NCBI GenBank assembly: GCA_041738615.1
Contig: JBGSPL010000003.1
Coordinates: 114,352 to 178,351, forward strand
DNA length: 64,000 nucleotides
DNA from: Patescibacteria group bacterium
GTDB lineage: Bacteria > Patescibacteriota > CPR2 > UBA1875 > CAIMLA01
Reading direction: 5' to 3'
How positions within the stretch are numbered: the first letter of the stretch is position 1; each line of letters starts with the position of its first letter. The notes under the pieces are model-generated. The model saw nothing but the letters and a program-made list of their open reading frames with translations, did no database searches and was not told the DNA's origin. Shown here in pieces: positions 186 to 59,226 of the stretch. Made by a program: the position numbers and the translations under genes.

Positions 186-938
186 CTAGAGCTGCTCCAT
201 AATACTTTCGGGAATGTCGTAATTGGAGTAAACAGTAGTTACGTCCTCAATGTCCTCGATGGCATCGATAAGCCTCAGGATTTTCCTTGCCGTTTCAACA
301 TCGGTAACTTTTGCTTCATTTTTTGGCTTATAGACAATCTCATCGTCAGAAATAATGATTTTTGAGCTTGCGAGAGCCTCTTTCACTTTCTGAAAATTTA
401 CTACTTTTGTATAAATTATGTATTCATTATCTGTCTCTTCGAAGTCATCAGCGCCAGATTCCAGGATAGCCATCTCAATTTCATCGGCAGATAGTATCTG
501 TCCCTCCCGAGGAACGACTATCTCACCTTTCTTCTCAAATTGGAATGCAACAGAGCCCGTTTCGGCCATATTACCACCTAGCTTCGAGAATACCGCGCGA
601 ACCTCTGGACCTGTACGATTTCTGTTATCTGTAAGCGCCTCGATAAGAACCGCCACACCTGCTTGAGCATAACCCTCATATAGTAACTCCTCCGGTGCAG
701 CTCCCCCAAGCTCTCCTGTCCCCTTTTTGATCGCACGTTCGATGTTTACCGAAGGCATATTTACCATCTTCGCCTTATCTATGGCGAGTCTTAGAGAAAA
801 GTTTGTCTTCGGATCACCGCCACCCTGCTTCGCGGCGATGGTAATGTTTGCAGCCGCCTTGGTAAACTCTTTGCCTTTCTTGGCATCTGTAGCTGCTTTC
901 TTGTGTTTGATACTAGCCCACTTACTGTGTCCGCTCAT
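186..938 (-). CDS. yebC: YebC/PmpR family DNA-binding transcriptional regulator
   Basis: 250 aa; MSGHSKWASIKHKK... N-terminus and overall YebC family pattern. Confidence 0.9.
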   Translation of the reverse strand: MSGHSKWASIKHKKAATDAKKGKEFTKAAANITIAAKQGGGDPKTNFSLRLAIDKAKMVNMPSVNIERAIKKGTGELGGAAPEELLYEGYAQAGVAVLIEALTDNRNRTGPEVRAVFSKLGGNMAETGSVAFQFEKKGEIVVPREGQILSADEIEMAILESGADDFEETDNEYIIYTKVVNFQKVKEALASSKIIISDDEIVYKPKNEAKVTDVETARKILRLIDAIEDIEDVTTVYSNYDIPESIMEQL

Positions 939-1063
939 TTAGGCTCCTCTCTATCTCGTCAATGGTGTTCGTTACAACCAGATTATACTCTTTTTGTGCC
1001 TAGAATTGAAGGCGGCGCTTACCCCATGGGGTAAGCGCCGACCAGACAGAGAGAAATGAGTGA

Positions 1064-1348
1064 TTAGAGCCCGCGAGCTTGTTTGCGTCCCTCGCAGTGT
1101 TCATGCGGCGCCAGGTAGACGCCGTCGGCCTGTCTGCGAAAGTGAAGGAGAACCCCACAATCTGGGCACGGGGCCGTCTGTGGGACAGTATCCTGGCACT
1201 GGCACCCCATAATCATTCTTACGGTATTTTTGGCACGAGGATGAGCAAGCGCCCCGTTCCCCTTAAAACATGCTTCCAGTACGACCGGTGTCTGACACTT
1301 CGTGCATGCTATATCAATGGCATTACTCGGTGTGCTGACGTCACCCAT
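1064..1348 (-). CDS. Island A Cys-rich hypothetical protein (94 aa from MGDVST)
   Basis: GC-rich ORF; AAGGAG RBS 7 nt upstream of ATG at 1348; CxxC...CPDC...HEHC pattern suggests metal binding. Confidence 0.45.
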   Translation of the reverse strand: MGDVSTPSNAIDIACTKCQTPVVLEACFKGNGALAHPRAKNTVRMIMGCQCQDTVPQTAPCPDCGVLLHFRRQADGVYLAPHEHCEGRKQARGL

Positions 1349-1440
1349 CTCTAGCTCCTTCGGTTGTGGTACTCGACAATTCATCTGTCGCGAATGTTCT
1401 TGGTCGGGCTGGCAAGGGATCGACCTTACCAGCCCGGAAT

Positions 1441-1466
1441 AAAAAAACCTCGCCGGAAAGCGAGGT
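1441..1466 (-). terminator. Rho-independent terminator (CCTCGCTTTCCGGCGAGG + T7 on minus strand)
   Basis: Perfect 6-bp stem hairpin followed by TTTTTTT on minus strand, downstream of island A gene 1711..1929. Confidence 0.6.
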
Positions 1467-1710
1467 GATCTTCTACATTGTGCTAAAACAACTAAAACTC
1501 CGCTTTCCTGCTCGTGGTAGTAAAGAAAAAAGGGAACGGGCGAAATGTATTTGTTGTTTGCATGTGAAATATCTTAGCCAACTTGAGCTTAAATGTCAAT
1601 AAAGCGAACGGCGCACCGTCCAAGCCTGCCCTGTAGGGCACTTATCAACCTCAACGTATGTTCATACGTATCTCGATTGGCTTGGTCTGGTGCGCTCGTG
1701 TTCGCGAGAG

Positions 1711-1929
1711 CTACATAGCAGGTACGGGCTTCACTTCCACCCGGAGCCCTTCTTTCGTGGGACGGCCTTCCAGGATGTTGCGCCTGACGTACAAGGCGTT
1801 CAGGTTCTCCCTGATCCGAGCCGCTTTCCTTGAGCGCTCCGGAAGACCCTCGAGCTTACCTTCGAGGCACTTGATTTCCTCGCATACCTCAGCGAGTTCC
1901 GCCATATTGGCGTCCGTACCATTCGGCAT
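1711..1929 (-). CDS. Island A hypothetical protein (72 aa from MPNGTD)
   Basis: GC-rich ORF; RBS GAGGGGAGG 5 nt upstream of ATG at 1929; coiled-coil-like composition. Confidence 0.45.
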   Translation of the reverse strand: MPNGTDANMAELAEVCEEIKCLEGKLEGLPERSRKAARIRENLNALYVRRNILEGRPTKEGLRVEVKPVPAM

Positions 1930-1940
1930 GGTTCCTCCCC

Positions 1941-2141
1941 TCATGCTGGGACGTTTGGTCCCGAGCACCTCGTTGTGATCCAAACACCTGCCTGCTGATC
2001 CGCGACTACCTGAAGCTTGCCCCCTAACTCAGAAGTGTAAGCTGTATAGCCCATCTTACGACAGGCCGCTACGGCCTTCTCCAGATCTTCGCGGCTCACC
2101 CCTTCTGGCGCCGGCATTGTCGTCGGCTCACTACTCGCCAT
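1941..2141 (-). CDS. Island A hypothetical protein (66 aa)
   Basis: GC-rich ORF; RBS AGAGGGGGGG 3 nt before ATG; stop 12 nt before next gene start, operon-like. Confidence 0.45.
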   Translation of the reverse strand: MASSEPTTMPAPEGVSREDLEKAVAACRKMGYTAYTSELGGKLQVVADQQAGVWITTRCSGPNVPA

Positions 2142-2206
2142 ACCCCCCCTCTTTCTCTCGCGGTTTCTGTATGTACCCGGGCGAGGTCCACCCGCATTAA
2201 CCTCAG

Positions 2207-2277
2207 CGGGGACGGCAGGATTCGAACCTGCACTCTACGGATGTTATCCGCTTGCCTACCAATATGGCCGCATCCCC
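2207..2277 (-). tRNA. tRNA gene, 71 nt, best-fit anticodon AAC (Val) - atypical
   Basis: Minus-strand GGGGATG...GGTTCGAATCC...CGTCCCC: 7-bp acceptor, T-arm GCAGG/TTCGAAT/CCTGC, D-loop with GG, anticodon loop AUAACAU with U33 and A37. A34 is unusual for bacteria; isotype needs tRNAscan. Confidence 0.6.
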
Positions 2278-2285
2278 ATAGAATC

Positions 2286-2309
2286 AAAAAACCTCACCGC
2301 TTGGTGAGG
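2286..2309 (-). terminator. Rho-independent terminator (CCTCACCAAGCGGTGAGG + TTTTTT on minus)
   Basis: 7-bp perfect stem followed by T6 on minus strand, just upstream (5') of the tRNA. Confidence 0.55.
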
Positions 2310-2476
2310 CCTACACGTGATTAGATGCTCCTACTCTTCTACCCGGACCTCATCAACCACAACCTCACCATAGCTACGGAGAATAGCTAGGACCACTACG
2401 AGGACGAGAATAAATGTGGTTGTTACGATTAACATGGCTATATGGTAGTAAATTTCCGCTCAGCCGTCAATAGAAA

Positions 2477-3349
2477 TTATTTAACTTTCTTTACTTCGTT
2501 TTGCCCTATCTCGAAGCTAACCGTCCCTTCTTGATCGGTCCGAAAGACCTGTATACCAGAAAGCGCAGCTAGCGCCTTTGTAGTTGGATGGCCAAACTTG
2601 TTATCCTTCCCGACCTCTATCACCGCAAACTTTGAATTCACTGCCTTTAGAAAATCAACACTTACCGAATCCTTGCTCCCGTGATGTGGGACTTTATAGA
2701 GTGAGCTGCGTATCTCTTGTCCAGACGCTAACAGCTGGCCCTGAGCCTCAGCTTCGAGGTCTCCCATAAAGAGGGCCGACTCACCCCCATAGCTCAGCTT
2801 AGTCACGACCGAGCTGTTGTTGATGTTGTCCATACTCGTTCCGGAAACTTCACTCAAAGGGAAAAGGAAACTGATCCCAACACCCGCTCCCAGGTCTAGC
2901 TTATCCCCTGCCTTTACGGCCTTCGTGCTCACATTCTTTGATTTCAGCAAACTCAAAAACTCCAAATACTCATCCGTAGAATAAGTAACTCCGCTAATAT
3001 ACGCCGTCTTGACCTGGTATTTCTTCAGTACCGAGACGAGTCCTGCCACGTGGTCTGCATGAGGATGGGTAAGGACTATTGCGTCAATCCTGCGACTATA
3101 GAAAGGAATGAACTTATCAAGCTCAACAAGAACACTGTCATCGGGACCGCCATCTATAAGCACATTCTGATGGCTCGGAGTCTGGATAAGCTCGGCGTCA
3201 CCCTGTCCCACAGATAAGAAATGTACAAATAGCCCGTTTTCGGTAGGTTTTACATCCGCTGACCAAACCGCAAAGACTAGCAAGGTCAATATAGCCAAAG
3301 CAAGAGTGTTACCAAGTATCTTTCTGATGTATTGCCATATGGCTCTCAT
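2477..3349 (-). CDS. ComEC-related metallo-beta-lactamase fold protein with N-terminal TM anchor
   Basis: 290 aa; HPHADHVAG..., GDLEA..., PHHGS MBL motifs as in ComEC/Rec2 C-terminal domain. Confidence 0.75.
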   Translation of the reverse strand: MRAIWQYIRKILGNTLALAILTLLVFAVWSADVKPTENGLFVHFLSVGQGDAELIQTPSHQNVLIDGGPDDSVLVELDKFIPFYSRRIDAIVLTHPHADHVAGLVSVLKKYQVKTAYISGVTYSTDEYLEFLSLLKSKNVSTKAVKAGDKLDLGAGVGISFLFPLSEVSGTSMDNINNSSVVTKLSYGGESALFMGDLEAEAQGQLLASGQEIRSSLYKVPHHGSKDSVSVDFLKAVNSKFAVIEVGKDNKFGHPTTKALAALSGIQVFRTDQEGTVSFEIGQNEVKKVK

Positions 3350-3506
3350 AACACAATTATATTACTTATCTTAAACCTTTACAGGTATACACTTTTTTGT
3401 TAATATACTTCACATGCAAACCGCAACGAACAACATGAAGAAATGCTGGAAGAAGGCTCGCCTCACGGAGAGTGTGCTTTAGGTTTGTAGATTTACTTTA
3501 CCTATC

Positions 3507-3534
3507 AGCTCTCCGCTAAGGAGAGCTTTTTTTA
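3507..3534 (+). terminator. Orphan plus-oriented hairpin+T7 (AGCTCTCCgctaaGGAGAGCT TTTTTTT)
   Basis: Perfect 8-bp stem + T7; no plus-strand gene immediately upstream. Confidence 0.35.
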
Positions 3535-3619
3535 TGGAAATTTCGGGGGGAATCCTGAAGTATCCACCAATACAAGATGGGCTGAGAAGCTCGCGTACCA
3601 CGAAAACGAGGAGGCACTG

Positions 3620-3820
3620 ATGAGCGCGAATACTCCGGGCGACATGCCAAGGAAGAGCCAGATCCGTGTAGGTTTTGGGAACGTGGAAACGACAGGGGGA
3701 CACATCGGAAGCACCGTCGTCCATCACTCCACCCAGAACACCGACGCCGAACTCGAGCGAATCCCGTCTATCGAACCGAAGAGTCCAAGCCTCGGGGCCT
3801 TGTTCCCCGAAGTCGACTGA
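3620..3820 (+). CDS. Island B hypothetical protein (66 aa)
   Basis: GC-rich; RBS GAGGAGGCACTG-ATG. Confidence 0.4.
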   Translation: MSANTPGDMPRKSQIRVGFGNVETTGGHIGSTVVHHSTQNTDAELERIPSIEPKSPSLGALFPEVD

Positions 3821-3829
3821 GGAGGCACC

Positions 3830-4084
3830 ATGAGTACGGACGGAAGAGATTGGACCCTAGTGCCTGGGTTGCCACTTTGCGTAAATCCAGTAGGACTCCA
3901 GGTAGCTCGTATGTCTGCGGGCTTTACTCAGGAGTCGCTCGTTGGGCCGTGCCCGCTCAGGGGATCTATCCTGATCTACGGCCAGAGTTGCCGTTGTGGC
4001 GTCGCTGACGTCATTGGATGCGGCTACCTTGTTCACCAGGCAGAACCCGCCCTGGCCTCCATCCCGCTCGCCCCTAATCTCTAG
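3830..4084 (+). CDS. Island B hypothetical protein (84 aa)
   Basis: GC-rich; RBS GAGGAGGCACC-ATG nearly identical to the upstream gene's RBS; stop lies in terminator hairpin. Confidence 0.4.
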   Translation: MSTDGRDWTLVPGLPLCVNPVGLQVARMSAGFTQESLVGPCPLRGSILIYGQSCRCGVADVIGCGYLVHQAEPALASIPLAPNL

Positions 4085-4105
4085 GGGCGGGCGGGCGCCC
4101 TTTTT
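4070..4105 (+). terminator. Double-hairpin Rho-independent terminator of island B (GCCCCTAatctcTAGGGGC + GGGCGGGCGCCC TTTTT)
   Basis: Two GC-rich stems followed by T5; the palindromic CTAG supplies stop codons on both strands. Confidence 0.65.
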
Positions 4106-5523
4106 CCAAAAAACAACCAGATGTCCAATATGAAGATATACGCAAGGAGAATCCACCACGGGTTCTCTATTTTGTATGCCGCGCTCGCCCAGCCCACGCT
4201 TCCGGACCACGTGATAACAGCGTTTATAAAGTGCAATATATAAAAGGTGGGCACTGCCAGAAATGTCCCCAGCGGTTGCCAAAGTATCCCCACTATTCCC
4301 ATCGCAAATGTCATTGCCATAGCCAGCGGGACTAGCGCCAAGATTACAACATTTGTTAGTGGCGCTATCACCGATACAATACCAAAGTAGTAGGAAAGGA
4401 GCGGCAATGTAGCGATCTGAGCCCCGAGGGTCTCGGAAAAAAGTGCCACATAACCTCCGCCAGCTCTTTCGAATAGGTTTTCTATTGTCGGTCCTATGTA
4501 CACGATACCTGCGAATGCAACAAAAGAGAGTTGGAAACCGACATCAAAGAGCGGCAGAAATGGATTAAACACAGCCATCATTGTCGCTGAAAACAAAATC
4601 GAGATAAAATTATCACTTTCCCGCCCGAGGTATGATGCGAGTAATGGTAAAGAACCCATGAGCGCCGCGCGCACCAAACTTGGTGCGCCACCAGTCATTA
4701 AAACAAAAATTAGAATCAAGGAAACAGGGAGTATCAGCTTCATCCGACGTGACATTTTGTTTCTAATCAGCAAAAAAGCCCCCATCAGGATAGTGATGTT
4801 ATAACCCGAGAGCGCAATAATGTGCGTGGTTCCGCTCACTTGCAGTGCCCTGACCATCTCAGGGCTCACGAGCGCCTTTTCTCCCATGATTATTCCGCTC
4901 CCCAAGCCAGCCTCGGCTGAGGGCAAGAGTCGTGAGATTGATTCGTTTAGCGCCTGCCGAAATGAGAGAAGAATGCCCCTGGCACCAACAAACACGCCTT
5001 CGCTCTGACCCGAACTCTCATATTTGGAGACAGACACCTCTCCAAGGAGTCCGTTGCTAATCATTCGCCATCGTGTCTCTTCTTTGTAGCCGGTGATTTT
5101 GGTCTCCAGCTCCAGCAATTCGCCATACTTCGGGGCTGTTCCGCTGTTTATATAACCTGTAAGTTTCGAGCCCACAAGGTCAGATTCTCCTGACACGACG
5201 ACCAAACGTACCTTATCACCATGAAGTGCCTTCTGGGGCAAATCATCTACTCGCGCCGTGAAGTGAAGATTATTACCGGAATACATGGAGTTAAGTTCGA
5301 TCAACCTAGAAGCAACGGCCTGGAAATGCCAAAGGGAAAGTAAGAACAGCCCTAAGCCGAATATTGTTCCAAATAAATACGGTTTCTTCAAAAATAGAAA
5401 AGACAATGCGATTAAGGTTCCCGCCAACGCGAGGTAGCCAGCAAGATAAATAGGTAGCACGAAACCCGCGAAACATCCCGCCAGATAGCAAAATAGCCAA
5501 ATTAGCAGTACTTTTGCCTTCAT
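4081..5523 (-). CDS. comEC: ComEC/Rec2 family competence protein, N-terminal DUF4131 + competence (membrane channel) domains, no MBL domain
   Basis: 480 aa, many TM segments, ...HIIALSGYNITIL... competence-domain pattern; C-terminal codons (RAPARP*) run into the island B terminator hairpin. Confidence 0.8.
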   Translation of the reverse strand: MKAKVLLIWLFCYLAGCFAGFVLPIYLAGYLALAGTLIALSFLFLKKPYLFGTIFGLGLFLLSLWHFQAVASRLIELNSMYSGNNLHFTARVDDLPQKALHGDKVRLVVVSGESDLVGSKLTGYINSGTAPKYGELLELETKITGYKEETRWRMISNGLLGEVSVSKYESSGQSEGVFVGARGILLSFRQALNESISRLLPSAEAGLGSGIIMGEKALVSPEMVRALQVSGTTHIIALSGYNITILMGAFLLIRNKMSRRMKLILPVSLILIFVLMTGGAPSLVRAALMGSLPLLASYLGRESDNFISILFSATMMAVFNPFLPLFDVGFQLSFVAFAGIVYIGPTIENLFERAGGGYVALFSETLGAQIATLPLLSYYFGIVSVIAPLTNVVILALVPLAMAMTFAMGIVGILWQPLGTFLAVPTFYILHFINAVITWSGSVGWASAAYKIENPWWILLAYIFILDIWLFFGKRAPARP

Positions 5524-5536
5524 AAGGGTATTTTAC

Positions 5537-5565
5537 TTGAAAAATATTCATTCTCATAATATAAT
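5537..5565 (+). promoter_or_regulatory. sigma70-like promoter TTGAAA-N17-TATAAT driving island C
   Basis: -35 TTGAAA 5537-5542, 17-nt spacer, -10 TATAAT 5560-5565. Confidence 0.5.
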
Positions 5566-5629
5566 TCCCGAGACGGAGGGCACGAGTAATCGTGTCCTCA
5601 AATCGTAGTTCCCGACCAAGGGAGGTCGC

Positions 5630-6236
5630 TGTGAGCAAAACAACCGCAGCCCAAGAGGACACTCGCATTACCCCCGAAAAGCACGTCTACTTCGACGACT
5701 GGAACAAGACCAGCCTTCGCCTCGGCAAGCTCGCCCGAGTCCTTGGCTGGGGCAGCCCGACGAAGGGTGATGGTGCTTTCAGCTCCGGCCAGGCAATCCA
5801 ATTTCAGCGGGTCACGGTCATCCTGCCGAGCGACGGTTCCAAGCCGTTCTACCTCGGCAACATCGAGATGGATGGACCGGCCGTCAAGGTCAACACTCTC
5901 TTGGCAAAGGGGTTGATCGACCAGCAGACGGCAGACGCTATCAATGCCGAGGTCGAGCTCGCGAAGGCAGCACGCATCACACGTCGCAAGCAGACCGAGA
6001 AGGCAAGGGAGAACTTCTCCTCGGCAGAGGGCAGGCTCCGTCAAGCACTGGCAGAGGTCGATCAGGCGGATCGCTTGGTTCACAAGCTTTCACGTGACCG
6101 GAAGAAGCCCATCACTGAAGTCGACGTCGCGCGCAAGGCCTACTTCAAAGCACAGGACAAAGAGAAGCGTGCGCGGCGCCATCGCGACAGGCTCTCTGAG
6201 CTGCGCATGGTAGGTCGAATTTCTCTGCCCCTCTAG
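5630..6236 (+). CDS. Island C hypothetical protein (~202 aa from GTG)
   Basis: GC-rich; RBS AAGGGAGG 5618-5625 then GTG 5630; basic/coiled-coil C-terminus; leader contains 8-bp stem GNRA-tetraloop hairpin (5578-5597). Confidence 0.5.
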
Positions 6237-6257
6237 CCCATGCCCCGTTGGGGCAAC

Positions 6258-6316
6258 GTGAAACCCTTGGTGTAACGACCAAGATCTCCGTTGCACCAAC
6301 GGGGTTTCACTTTATT
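6258..6316 (+). terminator. Long hairpin terminator of island C (GTGAAACCC...GGGGTTTCAC + TTTATT)
   Basis: ~22-bp imperfect stem then T-rich tract. Confidence 0.6.
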
Positions 6317-6321
6317 AGCAA

Positions 6322-6345
6322 AATAACCCCACGAGTGGGGTTATT
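6322..6345. terminator. Bidirectional hairpin AATAACCCCACGAGTGGGGTTATT between convergent genes
   Basis: Perfect stem flanked by A/T runs on both sides. Confidence 0.5.
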
Positions 6346-6359
6346 TATAAGAGTCCAAA

Positions 6360-6818
6360 CTAAACTGTAAATATTTTGAATACTGAGAATAAAACAGAGA
6401 GTAAGGTTACCACAACTATGCCGACTAGAAACATAGCACCGATAGTCTTCCAACCTAGATTATTGTAACCCTTGGCTAAATCTGGTAGCGTTTTTCGAAG
6501 ACTGTAGTAATACACAGCCTGTCCGATCAACGGATTTAGGGTCATGATTGCGACTGCCTTTGCATTAGCTACTTCTGTTCTAGCTATCTCGGGGTTTTTC
6601 TTAATCTTGTCTACATCCATGAGTGCTAGTACAAAACCAATACCTACAAGTACCCAACTAGCTGCTGGTATAAAACTATTTACTAGGTTCGCAACGACTA
6701 CAATACCCGCGATTATAAATAAATACTTCCATTTAAAAACTTTGAGCGTAATTTTTTCAGTTGAAGCTACTGGTGCCACCGGTGCCACTTCTGGTTTACC
6801 CATTTCTACGTCTGTCAT
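6360..6818 (-). CDS. Hypothetical membrane protein
   Basis: 152 aa, 3-4 hydrophobic helices. Confidence 0.5.
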   Translation of the reverse strand: MTDVEMGKPEVAPVAPVASTEKITLKVFKWKYLFIIAGIVVVANLVNSFIPAASWVLVGIGFVLALMDVDKIKKNPEIARTEVANAKAVAIMTLNPLIGQAVYYYSLRKTLPDLAKGYNNLGWKTIGAMFLVGIVVVTLLSVLFSVFKIFTV

Positions 6819-6841
6819 CTTTCTCCTTTATTTATCCGTTA

Positions 6842-7480
6842 CTAATTATATCTAAACCCAAAGTTCCAAACAACTATTCCTATAAAGATTAAAATTATGA
6901 TAAACATGAACAAACCAACTTTCCATCTAATTGGTTTGTTTTCATTCTGATGACTTACCATTACTAGCTGATTACCATTTAAGAACTTCTGCAAAGTATC
7001 GCCGACGGATATTTGCTTATTGGCAGAAAGAACATTCAAAATTGTATTTCGTAGTGTTTTCTCCTTTAGAAAGATAAAGTCGGCTTGATCTACTAAATAT
7101 TTCATCCCATCATCCATGGTAATCTCTAGATAACGCAGCGGTATTAGCGTAAGCAAGAAAAGCAGATTATCAAATACAAAGACATCGTTGTTAAATACGC
7201 TCAGAAAGTTCATGGATTTAATCTCTGAAATATTTATAGTATTTGCTCCTATCGGACCACCAAGTTCTAGACTGTTACCCTTAAGCGCAAAGGTATACCT
7301 TCTCAAAGAATACGACACTACAAATATACCCATGATTCCCAAGAAAATCAGTCCAAAGTGAGGAATCAATTCGGTTAATTGTTGAGAGAATAATTGCTTA
7401 GCAGTCCAATTTAGTAGATAAAAGACAAATAATAGTCGAATAAATACTATTTCGAGACTTAAAACTTTTCTTTTTTGCAT
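6842..7480 (-). CDS. Hypothetical membrane protein
   Basis: 212 aa, hydrophobic N- and C-terminal segments, very AT-rich. Confidence 0.5.
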   Translation of the reverse strand: MQKRKVLSLEIVFIRLLFVFYLLNWTAKQLFSQQLTELIPHFGLIFLGIMGIFVVSYSLRRYTFALKGNSLELGGPIGANTINISEIKSMNFLSVFNNDVFVFDNLLFLLTLIPLRYLEITMDDGMKYLVDQADFIFLKEKTLRNTILNVLSANKQISVGDTLQKFLNGNQLVMVSHQNENKPIRWKVGLFMFIIILIFIGIVVWNFGFRYN

Positions 7481-7536
7481 AGGAATAATATATAATAATT
7501 ATGCAATTGAGTAAATACTAAGAACAAAGAAATAGG

Positions 7537-8343
7537 GTGCGACTTATGGATACTCCAGAAAATATAGAAAGCAAGATACCAACATCAGTAGAGAAAAAGA
7601 ATTTTCTTGATACCTTAAGGCAGCACAAATTGGCTACGGCATTGGTATCAATTTTTTCCTTGTTGCTTCTTATATTCTTATTGGCAATTAACACAAAAGA
7701 TCAGGCAAGCGCCAACGCCAAAGAGGAATTAGCAAAATACTTAAATGATAAATACAAAGAAAGTTTTGATACAATTGACTACATTACTTATAGCAACGAA
7801 GGTAGCGCAGACTCTTGGGAAAAGATACTTGTAGTAAACCCAGCTAACGACAAATCTGTAGTTTTTGATGCTACGAAAACTTCTGAAGGAATTACTGACA
7901 GCTATCGATTATCAAGATGGTCAAAAGAACTAACAGGTAGACTGCGGGCTCAGGTAGAAGGCCTATTTAATTCAGAGACAGTTGTAAAAATATACCCAAC
8001 GGCAGATCGCACCTCCAGCCTACCGAAGGATTTTTCGTTTTATGATAACAACGTTACCACCGTTTATTTAGTAGGTGTAAAAACTTTAGGCTCAATAAAT
8101 TTTAGCGACTATCGTGAGTCAGTGTTTAAGCTCTATCAGCTTGCACGAAGTAACGGTGGGCAATTCGATATCAGTGTCCAGTTTGTTAGCTCCCTAGACA
8201 ACTTGACAAATGATGTTGAATATCGTAACGTGAATAGCCGCTACAATCGGTCTACTAATGGCGTAAACGCTCGTATAAATGTTGGTTCGCTTGAGAATAT
8301 AACAACGGCTAAAGATCTAGACAAGTATTTCGTTTCAAACTAA
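7537..8343 (+). CDS. Hypothetical membrane-anchored/secreted protein
   Basis: 268 aa, single N-terminal TM then hydrophilic Ser/Asn-rich domain. Confidence 0.55.
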   Translation: MRLMDTPENIESKIPTSVEKKNFLDTLRQHKLATALVSIFSLLLLIFLLAINTKDQASANAKEELAKYLNDKYKESFDTIDYITYSNEGSADSWEKILVVNPANDKSVVFDATKTSEGITDSYRLSRWSKELTGRLRAQVEGLFNSETVVKIYPTADRTSSLPKDFSFYDNNVTTVYLVGVKTLGSINFSDYRESVFKLYQLARSNGGQFDISVQFVSSLDNLTNDVEYRNVNSRYNRSTNGVNARINVGSLENITTAKDLDKYFVSN

Positions 8344-8411
8344 AGAAATGATTTCTTACTGATATCAAAGAATCCCCCATTTCTGGGGGATTCTCTTAAA
8401 TAGATGTACTA

Positions 8412-8687
8412 TTAGTTTTCGCGATGTTTAGCGAAACAATCACGGCAATATACTGGACGATCTGACTTTGGCTCGAAAGGAACCGTAGTAGTCTGACCAC
8501 AGTCTGCGCAAACTACCTCGAAGCTCTTTCGGTCCATTTTGGCCTCTTTGAACTTGCGACGGCAATCAGCACAACGCTTAGGCTCGTTTTCGAAACCTTT
8601 CTCAGCATAGAACTCCTGTTCACGCGCTGTAAAAGCGAAATCTGAACCACAATCTACACATGAGAGTGTTTTGTCTTCATAACTCAT
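8412..8687 (-). CDS. Zinc-ribbon domain protein (two CxxC...CxxC pairs)
   Basis: 91 aa; CVDCG...CADCR and CADCG...CRDC. Confidence 0.6.
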   Translation of the reverse strand: MSYEDKTLSCVDCGSDFAFTAREQEFYAEKGFENEPKRCADCRRKFKEAKMDRKSFEVVCADCGQTTTVPFEPKSDRPVYCRDCFAKHREN

Positions 8688-10367: not shown

Positions 10368-10862
10368 TTATCTCCGAAACTTATTCCAAAGAGTGATTGT
10401 AGTCAGCATCACGATTGGCGCGAGAAGCCAGAGTAGCTGATAGTTTGAAACCTGTATCGCCAGCGAACTGTCGCTAAAAAGTAATGCCTTCTCTTCATCG
10501 CCCATCAGTGTAAACACACTCGATAAGAGCAAACCGGCAGCCAAAACACCGTAAATGGCTGTTTGTATCGATTTTGAACCGCCATCGTTGCCACCGCTCA
10601 GCTCTTTGTTCATCATTAGAACAAAAAGGACAGTGACAAAAACAAAAACCTTGGCGCCAAACATTGTGAGGTTGAATGAATGGGAAATATCGGTAATTTT
10701 AGTCAAATACTGATAAGCGTAGCTACCCACATGGCTAGATACAGTGAGGGCAACATAGGAGTTTATGATAATGCTGAGCACTCGACTCCGCCCTAGGAGG
10801 AAGCCATAAACGCCCATTATTACGAATGTGAGGACTATGAAAAGATCCCAAGATAGGGTCAT
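10368..10862 (-). CDS. CvpA-like small membrane protein
   Basis: 164 aa, 4 TM, Gly-rich loop. Confidence 0.4.
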   Translation of the reverse strand: MTLSWDLFIVLTFVIMGVYGFLLGRSRVLSIIINSYVALTVSSHVGSYAYQYLTKITDISHSFNLTMFGAKVFVFVTVLFVLMMNKELSGGNDGGSKSIQTAIYGVLAAGLLLSSVFTLMGDEEKALLFSDSSLAIQVSNYQLLWLLAPIVMLTTITLWNKFRR

Positions 10863-10963
10863 AGTGTTCCTTATGTTAGCACTTCACCTAGTATAGCGCC
10901 TGACTGTATCTGTGGTCAAATATGCAAAGGGACGAGCGCCCGATGCATTTACTTTGCATCGGA

Positions 10964-12627: not shown

Positions 12628-12887
12628 TTCACTTCTCCACTCAGTACGTCATTTACGCTATCTAGGGTCTTTTTATCTAAATACCTAGTAATCTCTACGT
12701 TGCATTCGCTCACTAGCTTCGCCAAGGCATCTATGTCATTACCAACTACCTGCGCAAGCTTCTTGGCATCATTAATGATCTCTTCTGCTACCTCTGGGTA
12801 CTCGTGCTCCAGGGTGCGAATGATTTTGTACAAATTATCGAATGGCATCACGTTCGTATCGGTCATATTTCCTCTTTCTGGGTACAT
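12624..12887 (-). CDS. Hypothetical protein
   Basis: 87 aa; 4-nt overlap with downstream ORF. Confidence 0.45.
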   Translation of the reverse strand: MYPERGNMTDTNVMPFDNLYKIIRTLEHEYPEVAEEIINDAKKLAQVVGNDIDALAKLVSECNVEITRYLDKKTLDSVNDVLSGEVK

Positions 12888-12913
12888 TATATACCAAGCT
12901 ATAAATATCGTAA

Positions 12914-12983
12914 AACGCGAAAGGACCGGAGTCCCAGCTCGCGTTGCACCGAAGTGCTAGCGAACCGGAACCCGGTCCTCGTT
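12914..12983 (-). repeat. 70-nt structured repeat element copy 1 (terminator-like, 3' of island D gene D1); identical to 13754-13823
   Basis: 100% identical 70 nt; on minus strand forms GGACCGG...CCGGTCC outer stem with inner GCAC-UUCG-GUGC hairpin, followed by TTTCGCGTTTTA. Confidence 0.8.
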
Positions 12984-13025
12984 GTGCTTTTACCCTTGCG
13001 GGTCAGGCTGCACGCCTGTGTGGAG

Positions 13026-13568
13026 CTAGAAGCTCTTGAGCTTCTTCTGGAGATCTTTGATTGCGTTGAGGGTCTCCGTGTCCTCGCCCTCGTTGTCGCC
13101 GATGTTCTCGGCGCTGACAACGTACTTGGCCAAACGGTTGATACGTGTCTCGATGGCTTTGCGGGGAAGGTCCCGCCCTTCGACCATGTCGTAGAGCATC
13201 GGGATGACGTTGTCACCGAGATTGCCGTACGCGTAGCCTTGGGCATCCTTGCCCGTGAGACGATCTTCGTAATCCTTCATGGCGTCGTCGAAGTTCACGA
13301 GCAATTGCTTCGGGTTGGCTACCAAGTTCAACTGGTAGAGCTGGTCGTCCTGCTTGACGATCTCCTCCTGGAGAGCGTCGGCGCGCTCGGACTGGGCGTC
13401 GAGTTGCTCCTGAACGGACTTGTACTCGGCCTGGAGCTTCGCGAGTTCCTTACCCTGCTGGATAGCGACCTGGGCCGTCGTCTCGCTCTTGGCCTGCATC
13501 TTGAAAGCAGTGCCGAAGGCGAGTACGAGCAATGCACAGACAACTATCAACGCAAAGATCTTCCTCAT
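13026..13568 (-). CDS. Island D gene D1: secreted coiled-coil hypothetical protein (180 aa from MRKIF)
   Basis: GC-rich; signal peptide MRKIFALIVVCALLVLAFG; RBS GAGAGGGGA 7 nt before ATG. Confidence 0.5.
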   Translation of the reverse strand: MRKIFALIVVCALLVLAFGTAFKMQAKSETTAQVAIQQGKELAKLQAEYKSVQEQLDAQSERADALQEEIVKQDDQLYQLNLVANPKQLLVNFDDAMKDYEDRLTGKDAQGYAYGNLGDNVIPMLYDMVEGRDLPRKAIETRINRLAKYVVSAENIGDNEGEDTETLNAIKDLQKKLKSF

Positions 13569-13709
13569 TTGAGATCCCCTCTCATCGAGCCCCATCGGGG
13601 CCTATTCCACTTGTTTTCGCCGGCGGCGACAGCTGATCACGATGTTCGTGAGCAATTGTCGCCGTGGCGATAGATTCAAGGTGCAATTCTTGATTTCTCA
13701 AGACAGACT

Positions 13710-13737
13710 ATATTAACATACTTGTTTGTTTTGTCAA
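13710..13737 (-). promoter_or_regulatory. sigma70-like promoter TTGACA-N16-TAATAT for D1
   Basis: Perfect -35 hexamer on minus strand in AT-rich linker. Confidence 0.5.
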
Positions 13738-13753
13738 GTGTTTTCTACGCTAT

Positions 13754-13823
13754 AACGCGAAAGGACCGGAGTCCCAGCTCGCGTTGCACCGAAGTGCTAG
13801 CGAACCGGAACCCGGTCCTCGTT
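13754..13823 (-). repeat. 70-nt structured repeat element copy 2 (3' of island D gene D2)
   Basis: Identical to 12914-12983; about 25 nt downstream of D2 stop. Confidence 0.8.
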
Positions 13824-13846
13824 TGTGGTCGCACTCTTGCGACCTG

Positions 13847-14155
13847 CTACCCCCGCTGGAAACCCTGGAAGACGTCCTGAAGCGGACCAGGCACGTTCTG
13901 CAACGAACCGCCTGCGCGGCAGAACTTGGCAGCGTAGTTCGTGACGGTCTCGACGTCGTTGACGTCGCAATCCAGAGGAACACTGCCGATGGTGTCAAGG
14001 TTGCGCTCGAGCTGCTCAAAGGCAACATTCACCGGAATTCCGCCGTGCGGGACGTACTGGAAGCCGTTCTCGGTCATGATCTTGAAGACCGCGCCCATAA
14101 GGGCAAGAACCTTCAACTCATGACGTTCCGTGCCAACCTGCTGATCGCGTGCCAT
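13847..14155 (-). CDS. Island D gene D2 hypothetical protein (102 aa from MARDQQ)
   Basis: GC-rich; AAGGAG RBS 7 nt before ATG 14155. Confidence 0.45.
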   Translation of the reverse strand: MARDQQVGTERHELKVLALMGAVFKIMTENGFQYVPHGGIPVNVAFEQLERNLDTIGSVPLDCDVNDVETVTNYAAKFCRAGGSLQNVPGPLQDVFQGFQRG

Positions 14156-14171
14156 TGTTCGCTCCTTCGTG

Positions 14172-14489
14172 TTAGAGTGTCGCCTCGAGGGCGGCGCGTA
14201 CCTGATAGAGCTTCTTCTGGTTGCGCTGGCCGATCGGGCTGTGCGGGTCGATAACGAAAACCGACTTGACCACCTTGACGATCGGGCTGTCCGCTGAACC
14301 GGCATGGACCTTGGCCGTGAACTTCACGACTTCGGACTTGGCCGGTGCGGCCACGACATCAGGCAACTTCGGGAGATGACCCCGGTTGCTGCCCTTGACG
14401 ATCGGCGCCTTGGTGGCACCTCTGCGAGGCGTGTTGCCACGACGTTCGCGAGCACGCTTGACCTTCTTGGACTCGGTAGGCTTTCCCAC
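14172..14489 (-). CDS. Island D gene D3: small basic hypothetical protein (105 aa, GTG start)
   Basis: Lys/Arg-rich N-terminus; RBS GAGGGGAG 6 nt before GTG. Confidence 0.45.
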   Translation of the reverse strand: MGKPTESKKVKRARERRGNTPRRGATKAPIVKGSNRGHLPKLPDVVAAPAKSEVVKFTAKVHAGSADSPIVKVVKSVFVIDPHSPIGQRNQKKLYQVRAALEATL

Positions 14490-14530
14490 GGTAGCTCCCC
14501 TCGTCTTGTCCCTCAGGGACAGCTGACGTA

Positions 14531-14908
14531 CTAGGACGTCTCGTCGATATAGCGAGCGAGCGTCCAGGTGATGGACAGCTCATCGTGCGCCCCATTGTTC
14601 GTGACCTGCTCAACCTTACCGATCTTCCAACCGGCGTTGAGTGAGAACAGGACCGCGAGCTCCTCGTCAGCACGAAGCAAACGACGAACCTCCTGGACGG
14701 TCTTTCCCGAGAGACCCTCACCGGTATTGATCGTAATCGACCGGTAGTAGGGATCTATAATGCTGGTTGCCTGATAGGGGCGCTGATAGCACTCCTTCAT
14801 CCCACAACCAACAGCGACCGCCAGCGCGACGGCTACCCGATCTTTAACGCCGATGTAAATTTCGTCGACGTCACTAACCACGCTTGCAAGCTCGTCCTTA
14901 TCCAACAT
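14531..14908 (-). CDS. Island D gene D4 hypothetical protein (125 aa from MLDKDEL)
   Basis: RBS GAAAGGAAAC; start placed downstream of leader palindrome; ORF track start (14971) lies inside the palindrome. Confidence 0.45.
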   Translation of the reverse strand: MLDKDELASVVSDVDEIYIGVKDRVAVALAVAVGCGMKECYQRPYQATSIIDPYYRSITINTGEGLSGKTVQEVRRLLRADEELAVLFSLNAGWKIGKVEQVTNNGAHDELSITWTLARYIDETS

Positions 14909-14937
14909 GTCTTGTTTCCTTTCGGAATAGTATGGGC

Positions 14938-14989
14938 ATTGTTTACTGCAAACTATAGACACTATGGTCAACAGTTTGCAGTAAACAAT
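14938..14989. promoter_or_regulatory. Perfect 17-bp inverted repeat ATTGTTTACTGCAAACT-N18-AGTTTGCAGTAAACAAT in D4 leader (operator or RNA hairpin)
   Basis: Each arm is itself a near-palindrome (GTTTAC-T-GCAAAC); lies between promoter at 15025-15053 and the RBS. Confidence 0.6.
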
Positions 14990-15024
14990 AAGTAAAGTTA
15001 CATTTCGCTCTCACGAAACGTTAT

Positions 15025-15053
15025 ATTCTAGCATTTATATCATGTTTTGTCAA
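15025..15053 (-). promoter_or_regulatory. sigma70-like promoter TTGACA-N17-TAGAAT for D4-D3-D2 operon
   Basis: Consensus -35, 17-nt spacer, 5/6 -10, AT-rich linker inside GC-rich island. Confidence 0.55.
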
Positions 15054-15132
15054 TACTACATATGCATAGCGGGCAAGCCCGAATGCATGTGGTATGCAAA
15101 CGGACTCGCCCGCGCGGCTAGTAGCTGGACTG

Positions 15133-15702
15133 CTAGTAGTATTCCTTGGCGGCGTCGTTGAAGCCATCCGCCTCGAGACTGTTGATCATCTGATCGTAGT
15201 CCTTGGTGGCGCTGGGCCAGATATCGGACTTCTTGTACCCCGCCTTCTTGAGGACCTTGAGGACCTTGACGAGCTTGTCGTACTTGCGCCACGCCGCTCG
15301 CCCCTCGATGTTTCCAGGGTACCAGTTCATGAAGCGCGCCACGACTGCCCTCCACCGCCACTCGGGGTGCTCCTTGCGTCCCTCGACGATTCGGATGGTC
15401 GCGTCGAGCGCCATCAGGTAGTGCTCGTCCTCGATGGTGACCTCCCCGCCGTTGGCTTCGCTCCACGCCATGTGGTCGAGAAACTGGCTGATCGGCTCCC
15501 CGGGATACCTGCCGTGAGGTTCAGGCATCGGAGGCGGTTCCTCGGAATCTGCTGCTGCCTGAGCGGCATCTACCGCACTCGTTGCTTCAGGCAAGAAACG
15601 TTGAGTGCGATCAATACTCTTGTTGCACGAACGGATGTAGATGGCGACACCCCCAAGCAAAACCAGTACCAAGATGACGACATGAACCGTACGCAACCGC
15701 AT
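15133..15702 (-). CDS. Island D gene D5: membrane-anchored hypothetical protein (189 aa)
   Basis: N-terminal TM; RBS CAGAGGGGTAGG 6 nt before ATG. Confidence 0.5.
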   Translation of the reverse strand: MRLRTVHVVILVLVLLGGVAIYIRSCNKSIDRTQRFLPEATSAVDAAQAAADSEEPPPMPEPHGRYPGEPISQFLDHMAWSEANGGEVTIEDEHYLMALDATIRIVEGRKEHPEWRWRAVVARFMNWYPGNIEGRAAWRKYDKLVKVLKVLKKAGYKKSDIWPSATKDYDQMINSLEADGFNDAAKEYY

Positions 15703-15742
15703 GAGTTACCTACCCCTCTGAGCCGCAGCTCGGTCAAAATTG

Positions 15743-15796
15743 ATTTTCCTCAACACCCAAGGGACGATGAGTCGCCCACTGCGTGCTGAGGAAAAT
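15743..15796 (-). promoter_or_regulatory. Imperfect inverted repeat (TTTTCCTCAAC...GCTGAGGAAAA) in D5 5' leader
   Basis: 11-bp arms with 1 mismatch, 33-nt spacer. Confidence 0.35.
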
Positions 15797-15823
15797 AGGT
15801 ACAAAACATACGTTTAACGTGTG

Positions 15824-26063: not shown

Positions 26064-26091
26064 GGCCGGCGCTCCATGCGGAGCGCCGGCC
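26064..26091. terminator. GC-rich perfect hairpin GGCCGGCGCTCC-ATGC-GGAGCGCCGGCC between convergent hydA and island E gene
   Basis: 12-bp perfect stem; overlaps stop of 26091..26702. Confidence 0.55.
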
Positions 26092-26702
26092 TATAGTCCC
26101 AGTGCCTCTTTTGCCTTCTCGGTCCCGTGCCTCAGCCGTGGGGCCTGGAAGTAGTCGATAACGTCGATTCCCGCCATCTTGTTGGGCAACCCAGCAGAGA
26201 GCTGATTGCCGAGAATCTGAGCACTCATTCCGCCGTCTTCTACCCAAATCAGGGCTGCCAGGTGGGCGTACGGCGTCCCGACTTGCTTCCCGTAAGGAAC
26301 CAGTCCGCGAAGCTCCACGTTTGCGTCGCCGTTATCGTAGTAGTACTTACCGCCGACCATCGAGAGCGGTACCAGCGTGTGTGCGAACGCCTGCACCTGT
26401 CTTGGAAGCTCGGCACCAATCGTTGTTTCGATGGTGTCGAATTTGCCAGTATGCCCCGTCCCCGAGAAATGAAGCAGCAATGAACGCTGGTCTATCTTCC
26501 CCGAGGTTTGCCGTGCCGTCGCCGCGAGATCCATGAGACCATCGAGACTTGTAGCCAGCACACCGAAGGCTTCGAAGAAATCGTCCGACTTGTCACGGTC
26601 TAGCAGCTCTACGGCCTTCATCATGGGACCGTACGCGCCGCCGCAGCTAGCCAGAAGTTCTCTAGCGAGACCCTTGTCGTTAGGGTTCATTTCCAGGTTC
26701 AT
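26091..26702 (-). CDS. Island E GC-rich hypothetical protein (203 aa) appended to hypC operon
   Basis: High GC; RBS AGGAGG 7 nt before ATG, start 12 nt after hypC stop. Confidence 0.5.
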   Translation of the reverse strand: MNLEMNPNDKGLARELLASCGGAYGPMMKAVELLDRDKSDDFFEAFGVLATSLDGLMDLAATARQTSGKIDQRSLLLHFSGTGHTGKFDTIETTIGAELPRQVQAFAHTLVPLSMVGGKYYYDNGDANVELRGLVPYGKQVGTPYAHLAALIWVEDGGMSAQILGNQLSAGLPNKMAGIDVIDYFQAPRLRHGTEKAKEALGL

Positions 26703-44331: not shown

Positions 44332-44437
44332 AGCGACAAGCCGAGGAGGCGAGACGGAGTTGAGAGGTGTACCGTTCTTTTATCAAGACTTGGTTTCGCC
44401 AGCCGGCGAACAGGGTCCCGGAAAGGGGGCGAAAGGT

Positions 44438-46615: not shown

Positions 46616-46633
46616 CGCCACAGGCGCTAGAAC

Positions 46634-46690
46634 CAAGGGGCTACCTGCACAGCACTCGAGAGAGTGGCTGCCTGCTGGTAGCCCTCTTTC
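46634..46690 (+). terminator. Long-hairpin terminator copy 1 (GGGGCTACC...GGTAGCCC CTCTTTC) after F1
   Basis: ~85% identical to 47312-47367. Confidence 0.6.
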
Positions 46691-46700
46691 TTTACCTATA

Positions 46701-46736
46701 TATAGCCTTTACACGAAGGCTATATTGTGGTACAAT
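46701..46736 (+). promoter_or_regulatory. Promoter TTTACA-N17-TACAAT for F2 with overlapping 9-bp inverted repeat TATAGCCTT-N6-AAGGCTATA
   Basis: IR 46701-46724 overlaps -35 (46708-46713); -10 at 46731-46736. Confidence 0.5.
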
Positions 46737-46782
46737 ACTGCACGAAACTATGTACCTGTCAGCAACCGACCAAGGGGGATCC

Positions 46783-47304
46783 GTGAATTGCACGTTGCAA
46801 GTCGCCACCATCGTACTTCTTGCGATGCTCGAGGCAGACAAGCTGCCTATCGAGATGATTCCTGACGAGTTTGAGTACGAGATTTACCTGATTGCGCGTG
46901 AGCACGCTCTTACAACCCAGAACTACGAGTTCGCTCTCCATCTCTCCGAGAGTAGAGAGCGTTCACGCTGGATCAAGGAAACCAACGGAGACCGACTGAT
47001 AGTGATATGGGAAGCTCTCGGTTGGGTCGAGGTCGGATTCCATAGTCCGTTCTGGTCCGGCAAGAAGCGCTATGTCCTCCCGCGCCAATACCGCTCCTAC
47101 CCACCATGCGAAAAGCGTGAAATGGACGAAGCGGAGTTGGATCAAGCGCTAGAACAGGCCCGTGAGAGCCTGTCCAAGGGCTATCGCATCACGTTCTCGA
47201 GAGGCTGCTCGCGCGAAACAGCCTGGCGTTTGTTCGAAGCCGGGTTGGTATCCTGCAACCCGCCGAGACAGCCCAACATGGTTCTCGCACCTGAATGCCG
47301 CTAG
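46783..47304 (+). CDS. Island F gene F2 hypothetical protein (~173 aa from GTG 46783; alternative ATG 46753)
   Basis: RBS CAAGGGGGATCC-GTG; upstream promoter; ORF open from 46576 but that region holds F1's terminator. Confidence 0.4.
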   Translation: MNCTLQVATIVLLAMLEADKLPIEMIPDEFEYEIYLIAREHALTTQNYEFALHLSESRERSRWIKETNGDRLIVIWEALGWVEVGFHSPFWSGKKRYVLPRQYRSYPPCEKREMDEAELDQALEQARESLSKGYRITFSRGCSRETAWRLFEAGLVSCNPPRQPNMVLAPECR

Positions 47305-49439: not shown

Positions 49440-49562
49440 GATGTCGACGAGGGTGGCCCAATCGGTGGGCACCGCATCTACATCTGAGGGAGTAATGTCG
49501 ACCGACTCACTGTCGACAGTGACACTATCCTGTGGGCTCTTGTCATCGGCGGCCATGTGGTT
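49440..49562 (-). CDS. Island G micro-ORF (40 aa, acidic)
   Basis: Perfect AAGGAGG RBS 11 nt before ATG; downstream of G1 in same orientation; short, so tentative. Confidence 0.3.
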
Positions 49563-49586
49563 ACCTGCCTCCTTGGTGGAAAGTGG

Positions 49587-50045: not shown

Positions 50046-50109
50046 GCGTTCCCCTCTCGTCGAACTGACAATGTGCAACACAATTCCAGATTATACACTA
50101 TTTTTGCAA

Positions 50110-50134
50110 AAAGTCCAGCTTTTGGCTGGACTTT
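50110..50134 (-). terminator. Terminator AAAGTCCAGC-caaaa-GCTGGACTTTTT for native 50194..50619 gene; TATAAT follows on minus strand
   Basis: Perfect 10-bp stem + T5 on minus strand; putative G1 promoter TGGACT-N16-TATAAT overlaps. Confidence 0.55.
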
Positions 50135-50193
50135 AAGGCGTAAATTTGTAATGCAATGGATTCTGAAATTAGTTCAGAATGACGCTGAATATA

Positions 50194-59216: not shown

Positions 59217-59226
59217 GGTGGTTCAA

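Follow-up and report, generated by a model that had tools for sequence, protein, structure and literature searches.

A probable two-subunit Patescibacteria ComEC whose genes flank a lineage-specific operon

Introduction

The ComEC of Neomoorella carbonis is a single polypeptide whose full-length structure has been solved (PDB 30bt; Nucleic Acids Research (NAR) 2026, PMC13539106). In full-length ComEC a short cytoplasmic helix lies between transmembrane helices (TM) 10 and 11, TM11 is peripheral and mobile, and a flexible linker leads to the nuclease domain (PMC13539106). For bacteria of the Candidate Phyla Radiation (CPR), Meheust et al. have described the fusion of ComEC to its metallo-beta-lactamase (MBL) domain as 'essentially absent in CPR bacteria' (Nat Commun 2019, PMC6744442). 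Cultivable Patescibacteria with a split ComEC include Saccharibacteria, in which transformation is lost when comEC is deleted (PMC10633639). Here we analyse the ComEC locus in a stretch of 64,000 nucleotides (nt), hereafter the window, from a Patescibacteria group bacterium (GTDB lineage Bacteria; Patescibacteriota; CPR2; UBA1875; CAIMLA01; GenBank assembly GCA_041738615.1, contig JBGSPL010000003.1, positions 114,352 to 178,351 of the forward strand), in which a channel gene, comEC-N, and an MBL gene are separated by a GC-rich cassette. An initial annotation of this DNA offered two explanations for the arrangement: either the insertion of the cassette truncated or re-terminated comEC, or the organism has a naturally bipartite ComEC. 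Our analysis indicates that the locus very probably holds the two-subunit ComEC that is ordinary for Patescibacteria, its genes being separated by an operon specific to the lineage.

Results

To describe the ComEC genes, we start from their domains. The channel subunit is encoded by comEC-N (4081..5523, - strand), the 480-aa ComEC N-terminal open reading frame (ORF) of the initial annotation, which contains a probable OB-fold/DUF4131 region and a complete Competence domain (Pfam). The latter (PF03772) scores 155.3 bits over profile positions 2-266 of 270 (residues 212-471), and TIGR00360 scores 64.2 bits for a cut-off of 36.5. DUF4131 (PF13567) stays under its cut-off of 31.6 with 27.4 bits; the family profile still aligns across the OB-fold region, from residue 6 of the solved chain (30bt_A). 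The end of comEC-N falls at the same aligned position as in its homologues. The second gene (2477..3349, - strand) encodes a stand-alone MBL nuclease subunit of 290 aa. The separate MBL-domain ORF with a TM anchor of its own that had been described is recognizable in it by a Lactamase_B domain (Pfam) and by a hydrophobic N-terminal helix (residues ~14-29), and the HxHxDH metal site is intact as HPHADH (residues 95-100). Both ORFs lie on the same strand in different frames, as had been noticed (5523 mod 3 = 0; 3349 mod 3 = 1).

Alignment of both ORFs to full-length ComEC, the check proposed in the initial annotation, was seamless (residues ~1-500 and 501-784). The channel-family profile covers residues 6-488 (envelope 1-501) of 30bt_A, the 801-residue chain of the full-length structure, and residues 2-279 of the MBL ORF align to its residues 501-784 (E 4.6e-47), so that the two ORFs together span residues ~1-784 of the 801. 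TIGR00361, the profile of the single-polypeptide equivalog, is matched in complementary parts, at profile positions 110-404 by the channel ORF and 425-663 by the MBL ORF; the individual scores of 66.5 and 123.6 bits are below its cut-off of 190.05. Because the two ORFs tile 30bt end to end, no residues appear to be missing at the junction. The proposal that an insertion truncated comEC is hence contradicted by the gapless tiling, by the complementary parts of TIGR00361 and by the completeness of the Competence domain. It follows from the alignment that the N-terminal helix of the MBL ORF would be the equivalent of TM11, and the break between both polypeptides is predicted to sit between TM10 and TM11, in the cytoplasmic stretch. 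Such a break point would be structurally permissive, because TM11 is peripheral and mobile in the full-length protein and the nuclease hangs on a flexible linker.

One could suspect that faulty assembly or a frameshift in a metagenome-assembled genome (MAG) produced the split, given that the source is evidently of this type and that its relatives are MAGs. Yet the two ORFs are 731 bp apart, across unrelated conserved sequence and with no frameshift, and the same structure has been assembled independently in many samples. We regard the chance of an artefact as practically negligible.

The arrangement was then placed in the context of the phylum. One genome per GTDB species was scanned, yielding 80 loci, nearly all with titles of Patescibacteria-type MAGs and 3 labelled Gammaproteobacteria. 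A script detected a fused ComEC ORF in none of these 80 representative loci. The MBL gene was found downstream on the same strand in 58 of them, and outside the clade of the window the comEC-N and MBL genes overlap or are at most 82 nt apart in 40 of 57 pairs. Homologues of the individual ORFs tell the same story: of the 323 homologues that the channel ORF has at E <= 1e-10, the best 120 listed are with few exceptions 410-540 aa long and all lack an MBL domain; for the MBL ORF, the best 120 listed are all stand-alone proteins of 237-320 aa. This indicates that a bipartite ComEC is the normal and ancestral state for the phylum, as already reported in the literature (PMC6744442), and that the second explanation of the initial annotation holds phylum-wide. 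The annotation had named insert-free relatives with the same two-gene layout and identical ends as the observation that would speak against an effect of the insert, and two such relatives exist (individual genomes are cited by L numbers): L099, of the same clade, and the outgroup L088 lack the insert and have two separate ComEC genes with ends at the matching aligned position.

These data bear directly on the idea that a GC-rich insertion split a formerly fused comEC, or removed residues at the junction, and crippled DNA uptake. The position of the cassette exactly at the domain boundary, and the fact that the last codons of comEC-N are those of the cassette terminator (see below), are what such an event would leave behind. 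However, no fusion was found in the 80 loci or in the 240 listed homologues, the insert-free L088 and L099 have both genes with matching ends, and the ORFs of the window tile full-length ComEC, are both intact and have orthologs that are 44-76% (channel) and 57-81% (MBL) identical. A split by insertion is therefore exceedingly improbable.

The gap between the ComEC ORFs (3350-4080) measures 731 bp and has a GC content of 0.53 overall, with a GC-rich core at ~3500-4100 that reaches 0.52-0.645 in 200-bp windows, for a mean of 0.48 in the window. The two-gene cassette that had been placed in this gap (island B) is present, with its two ORFs; the earlier description missed its leader, and also that the cassette lies on the strand opposite to the ComEC genes, convergent with comEC-N. 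Both ORFs are on the + strand and each is preceded by an identical GAGGAGGCAC. ORF1 (3620..3820, +) encodes an orphan, low-complexity and probably disordered protein of 66 aa with a C-terminal G-x-[WL] motif. It is 74% identical to its L001 ortholog, and the ratio of nonsynonymous to synonymous change (pN/pS) is 0.33 in the annotated frame and 0.8-1.9 in the other two. Across the clade ORF1 is unalignable, except for the C-terminal motif and the junction of its stop with the following Shine-Dalgarno (SD) site, TGAGGAGGCACC, identical in the window and in L087. ORF2 (3830..4084, +) encodes an orphan Cys-rich protein of 84 aa that corresponds to the C-terminal half of a 139-aa protein of L002 (BLASTP E 1e-10); the ORF2 copies of L005 and L087 match each other (BLASTP 4e-9). 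A single-sequence AlphaFold2 (AF2) model of ORF2 was uninformative (pLDDT, the predicted local distance difference test, of 42.5).

Searches with the cassette proteins of the window and of its five cassette-bearing relatives gave no match in Pfam, NCBIfam or PADLOC, and the PADLOC defence models had zero matches among nine cassette and island proteins. A word-indexed search with the 139-aa ORF2 protein of L002 returned nothing beyond itself, and an exhaustive HMMER search with ORF1 returned just the L001 ortholog and a repetitive 581-aa protein that we judged spurious. The cassette proteins thus appear to have no detectable relatives outside the clade. We also considered whether the gap could be an intron or intein between exons, and rejected this: the genes are separate phylum-wide, and the strand opposite to ComEC carries, within the gap, a separate promoter, SD sites and a terminator.

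The cassette is syntenic in six genomes, the window, L001, L002, L004, L005 and L087. In all five relatives the corresponding site is a GC-rich gap, 505-1346 bp long, with small genes on the opposite strand. Their channel proteins are 76% (L001), 61% (L002), 55% (L004), 46% (L005) and 44% (L087) identical to that of the window, and their MBL orthologs are 57-81% identical. L099 (P0014) is nested among these genomes in the ComEC tree and has no cassette, its ComEC genes being 6 nt apart. In the outgroup L088 the two genes overlap by 11 nt. Because L099 is nested among cassette-bearing genomes and yet has a 6-nt gap, its state implies a secondary loss, and hence a cassette that would be dispensable. 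As for marks of mobility, the window contains no second copy of the cassette and no flanking or terminal repeats beyond chance or target-site duplications, domain libraries revealed no integrase or transposase domains at the cassette, and the phage and plasmid DNA collections held no match to it.

This distribution is hard to reconcile with a recent arrival of island B between the genes as foreign or mobile DNA, be it of phage, plasmid or GC-rich host origin. Several features do point to such an origin: GC and GC3 (the GC content at third codon positions) are clearly over those of the flanking genes, the cassette genes have strong SD sites while their neighbours appear leaderless, gene content varies among genomes, and unrelated inserts occupy the junction elsewhere, such as the IS200-like gene in L059. 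Against it, the cassette occupies one and the same site in genomes whose ComEC is just 44-76% identical, there is neither a second copy in the window nor flanking repeats, integrase, transposase or a phage or plasmid match, and the GC excess is found in all relatives alike, undecayed, unlike what is expected of an ancient transfer. A recent foreign origin is in consequence very unlikely. Because it sits at a common site in relatives, lacks mobility marks and has been lost in L099, the cassette is an old, vertically inherited, fast-evolving and dispensable clade-specific resident, and not a recent disruptive insertion. The alternative that its GC-richness is a pure effect of amino-acid composition (G, P, R and C are enriched) was rejected, as GC3 is raised too.

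Unrelated genes between comEC-N and the MBL gene were also seen in other Patescibacteria, in L059 (5658-6354), L016, L024, L039, L047, L069, L074 and L083. The insert of L059 is an IS200-like (HYHLL) ORF, and that of L024 a lipoprotein-like ORF, GC-rich and opposite in orientation. The comEC-N/MBL junction appears to tolerate insertions and to have received them repeatedly.

The cassette ends inside comEC-N. Its terminator region (4063..4105, +) consists of a 14-bp hairpin centred on the overlapping stops, followed by GGGCG..CGCCC and TTTTT. The hairpin itself (4063-4095) has a 14-bp stem with 11 G-C pairs, CCCGCTCGCCCCTA/TAGGGGCGGGCGGG, next to which come CGCCC and TTTTT. Read on the minus strand, its 3' arm gives R-A-P-A-R-P-stop of comEC-N, which agrees with the earlier observation that RAPARP* is encoded by a GC-rich terminator hairpin. 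Equally accurate was the remark that a palindromic CTAG gives stops on both strands: the CTAG at 4081-4084 provides TAG for ORF2 (4082-4084), and its CTA (4081-4083) is the TAG of comEC-N.

In all six cassette-bearing genomes a stable GC-rich hairpin has its centre at the comEC-N stop or next to it, which is beyond chance. On the cassette strand there is in addition a shorter hairpin with the sequence GTGGG..CCCAC, replaced in the window by GGGCG..CGCCC, and then a T-run whose strength varies and which is degenerate in L087. Read on the comEC strand, the same bases encode K-(K)-V-G-R-x-R-P-T, giving a tail motif VGRxRPT that is RAPARP in the window. In the cassette-free L099 the comEC-N tail is KKTKVVVET and there is no hairpin. 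Because the motif tracks the presence and absence of the cassette, the conserved comEC-N tail is best read as an imprint of the cassette terminator, its sequence being apparently dictated by RNA structure. The re-termination of comEC that had been suggested is thus correct to the extent that its last ~8 codons are overprinted by the hairpin; this tail lies beyond the end of the Competence domain, and from this location we infer that re-termination would carry no evident functional cost.

We also looked at how the two ComEC genes could be transcribed. A conserved -10-like TATAAT (3356..3361, -) is found exactly 6 nt upstream of the ATG of the MBL gene. In all six cassette-bearing genomes TA(T/G)AAT precedes this ATG by 6 nt, with no SD site, and it is absent in the outgroup L088, in which the ComEC genes overlap. 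This suggests that the MBL gene of the cassette clade has its own promoter and a leaderless mRNA. For comEC-N, a promoter-like site, ATGAGA-16-TAAAAT (5530..5557, -), can be proposed from the sequence only; its -10 box (TAAAAT) stops 6 nt short of the ATG and there is no SD site, suggesting that the comEC-N mRNA is leaderless too. comEC-N and the MBL gene are likely to be independent leaderless transcription units, because their -10-like boxes stand at a matching 6-nt distance and because such an arrangement is found in about one fifth of the larger ORFs of the window.

Throughout the window, 13 of the 61 ORFs of at least 120 aa (~1/5) lack an SD site and have a TAnnnT hexamer at 6-8 nt from a candidate start, on its upstream side (examples are the starts at 3349, 5523, 7480, 12296, 27710, 29242 and 44089). 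Frequent leaderless mRNAs are therefore suggested; other genes, and the cassette ORFs, have AGGAG-type SD sites.

The cassette is headed by a conserved leader of ~245 nt (3376-3619, +), present in the window, L001, L002 and L004. It is the most conserved part of the gap, above the ORFs, with 81% mean column identity in these four genomes. It starts with the predicted cassette promoter, TTTACA-17-TAATAT (3378..3406, +), whose columns are invariant in the four genomes and whose -35 box, TTTACA, matches in reverse complement the -35-like TGTAAA belonging to the divergent MBL promoter. An ATG 7 nt after the promoter opens a putative leaderless short ORF (sORF) of 22 codons, MQTATNNMKKCWKKARLTESVL (3414..3482, +). 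Its length is kept through in-frame indels in L004, but its pN/pS is 0.7-1.4; translation of this sORF is no more than plausible. Then come a leader terminator, AGCTCTCC/GGAGAGCT plus T7 (3507..3534, +), and past it a conserved hairpin, ATGGAAATTTCGGGGGGAATCCTGAAGTATCCACCA (3534..3569, +), that is unique in the window and shows two compensatory pairs in L004. In a further leader stem, with one compensatory change, the 5' end pairs with sequence that follows the sORF stop. The last leader element is GTACCACGA-AAC-AGGAGG, and ORF1 comes next.

This order of elements resembles an attenuator. GGAGAG, at the 3' end of the sORF, can pair with the 5' arm of the leader terminator in place of the terminator stem. 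The resulting antiterminator-like extended fold is the minimum free energy structure in three of the four genomes and lies within 0.6-3.7 kcal/mol of the terminator fold, a comparison of four sequences with few covarying pairs. Island B does not show the run of codons for a sensed amino acid, or the operon for its synthesis or transport, that mark an attenuator: its sORF has KKCWKK (weakened in L004) and its downstream genes encode orphan proteins. Rfam, searched over the whole window at the gathering threshold, gave no family in the cassette or leader, and a permissive scan of 900-6400 gave chance-level matches alone. A metagenome scan with an invariant 20-mer of the leader returned 10 loci, among which nhmmer matched the generic terminator part only, and so no new leader copies.

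A paralogous leader was found in a second GC-rich patch, island A (1445-1600, -), before a Cys-rich ORF (1064..1384, -), with orthologs in L001 (~5100-5375), L002 (~10660-10890) and L004 (~4790-5050). In it, TTGACA-17-TAAGAT is followed after 7 nt by a leaderless sORF (MQTTNTFRPFPFFFTTTSRKAEF); a strong terminator comes next, then a hairpin and lastly GAGTACCACAACCGAAGGAG. Its sORF has a Phe run that is kept in four genomes via in-frame indels, and carries at its 3' end GGAAAGCG, a complement of the arm and loop of the terminator (CGCTTTCC). The island A leader looks like a Phe-type leader-peptide attenuator placed before an orphan Zn-ribbon-like protein.

From these elements one can imagine that the leaders of islands A and B are ribosome-mediated attenuators acting on leaderless peptides and gating orphan Zn-ribbon-like operons, and that in island B regulated read-through of the terminator inside comEC-N produces an antisense transcript, which would couple translational or amino-acid status to channel expression. 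We hold this scheme to be doubtful. The modest residual novelty of the locus lies in the leader elements.

A broader possibility is that the cassette is tied to DNA uptake, either because its small proteins are accessory to it or because leader-gated convergent transcription serves as an antisense or interference switch on comEC-N. The position between the ComEC genes, kept across a deep clade, would fit, as would a terminator inside the comEC-N coding sequence, which makes any read-through antisense to comEC-N, and a leader with alternative terminator and antiterminator folds of similar energy. On the other hand, the cassette is missing from L099 and from all other Patescibacteria examined, which keep their ComEC genes, and its proteins have no recognisable domains. 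Its position is weak evidence too, given that the regional synteny (zf_Tbcl-comEC-MBL-YebC-RuvC) is generally conserved. A role in uptake is accordingly unlikely.

Other features of the neighbourhood were recorded. Just downstream of the MBL gene, in island A, there is a tRNA-like gene (2206-2277, -) with a weak Rfam score of 39.5 bits, called as tRNA-Val with anticodon AAC. The call is repeated at the corresponding place in L002 (9668-9739) and is not found in L001 or L004. A Val anticodon with A34 is unusual for bacteria, and this gene may be a tRNA-like element or the remnant of an integration site. On the other side of the locus, the ~2.9 kb between comEC-N and the zf_Tbcl gene (5524-8411; zf_Tbcl at 8412..8687) have no counterpart in L001, L002 and L004, whose zf_Tbcl gene is immediately upstream of comEC-N. 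This window-specific segment contains a GC-rich orphan ORF of 214 aa (5592..6236, +; GC3 0.72), which we call island C. It also contains, at 6360-8343, three ORFs that are AT-rich (GC 0.33-0.39), and long hydrophobic stretches occur in at least two of these. Scattered GC-rich patches (GC 0.55-0.63, GC3 up to 0.76) are found in this window of 0.48 GC at ~1000-2300, 3540-4100, 5590-6240, 12800-15800, 26090-26700, 44360-47300, 49560-50200 and 59060-59660. The patches examined, islands A, B and C, hold small or orphan ORFs, and the excess of island B is found alike at the orthologous site in five relatives.

Discussion

We propose that the two genes of this locus form a single machine. comEC-N would provide the OB-fold and the channel (equivalent of TM1-TM10), ending in a short basic cytoplasmic tail, and the MBL gene would provide the last TM helix (equivalent of TM11) together with the external beta-lactamase-like nuclease. 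Both products are expected to assemble non-covalently, because TM11 is peripheral and the nuclease flexibly linked in the solved full-length protein, and they would work like fused ComEC, with the nuclease degrading one strand while the channel imports the other. In the ancestral state the two genes would have overlapped or abutted. Later, in the clade of the window, a small operon convergent to comEC-N would have been placed between them; one sub-clade has in addition a leader, made up of promoter, leaderless sORF, terminator and hairpin. Two consequences would have followed. Separated from the promoter of comEC-N, the MBL gene would have gained a -10 box of its own at 6 nt from its ATG, and the intrinsic terminator of the operon would have been accommodated within the last ~8 codons of comEC-N. 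The effects of the cassette on ComEC would be limited to the transcriptional uncoupling of both genes and to a terminator written into the last channel codons.

Some observations do not sit well with this history of an ordinary two-subunit ComEC and an old resident operon. In 22 of the 80 loci there is no MBL gene in the fetched flank, several flanks ending at contig ends, and adjacency of both genes is hence common, not universal. In each of the six genomes the GC3 of the cassette is ~0.05-0.30 (mostly 0.1-0.25) above that of the flanking ComEC genes. Such an excess is not expected from vertical inheritance by itself and may reflect selection that acts on composition, or recurrent replacement by DNA of a GC-rich source. 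ORF2 of the window is devoid of the N-terminal four-Cys domain seen in L001, L002 and L004, and gene content differs among cassettes, with a third ORF in L001 and no leader in L005 and L087, indicating some turnover. Finally, the promoters, leaderless starts and terminators described here are predictions from the DNA sequence.

The locus gives no sign of a defect in DNA uptake. For annotation purposes, a ComEC of ~480 aa and a neighbouring MBL protein of ~290 aa should be taken as one two-subunit machine and not as a truncated gene. The break between TM10 and TM11 agrees with the new structures of full-length ComEC and offers a natural example with which to ask whether the nuclease needs a covalent tether. 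The embedded terminator illustrates how a constraint on RNA structure can masquerade as a conserved protein tail.

Comparison with known systems places each part of the locus. The leader shares with attenuators of the trpL/pheL/thrL type a short ORF right behind the promoter, followed by a terminator, one arm of which pairs alternatively with the 3' end of the sORF, and the paralogous leader of island A also shares a conserved Phe run. It differs from them, in the four sequences at hand, in that the sORF of island B appears leaderless and has no clear run of a single residue (KKCWKK), and in that the downstream genes encode orphan Cys-rich proteins and not a biosynthetic operon. The cassette terminator is comparable to the intrinsic terminators shared by convergent genes in compact genomes, in which a GC-rich hairpin marks the meeting point and the stops overlap. 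In contrast to these, the stem and T-run of the window lie inside the coding sequence of comEC-N and fix its last residues (K-K/V-G-R-x-R-P-T).

As for ComEC itself, the domains (a probable OB-fold among them), their order and the HxHxDH motif are those of the N. carbonis protein and of TIGR00361 (ComEC_Rec2), from which the window differs in having two polypeptides instead of one, split at TM10/TM11. There is a further likeness with the unfused ComEC of CPR/Patescibacteria (PMC6744442), with a channel protein of ~480 aa (Competence and, probably, DUF4131) without MBL domain. Whereas in most Patescibacteria the MBL gene overlaps or abuts comEC-N, the window and its five relatives carry a convergent operon of 505-1346 bp between both genes, and an MBL gene with a promoter-like element of its own.

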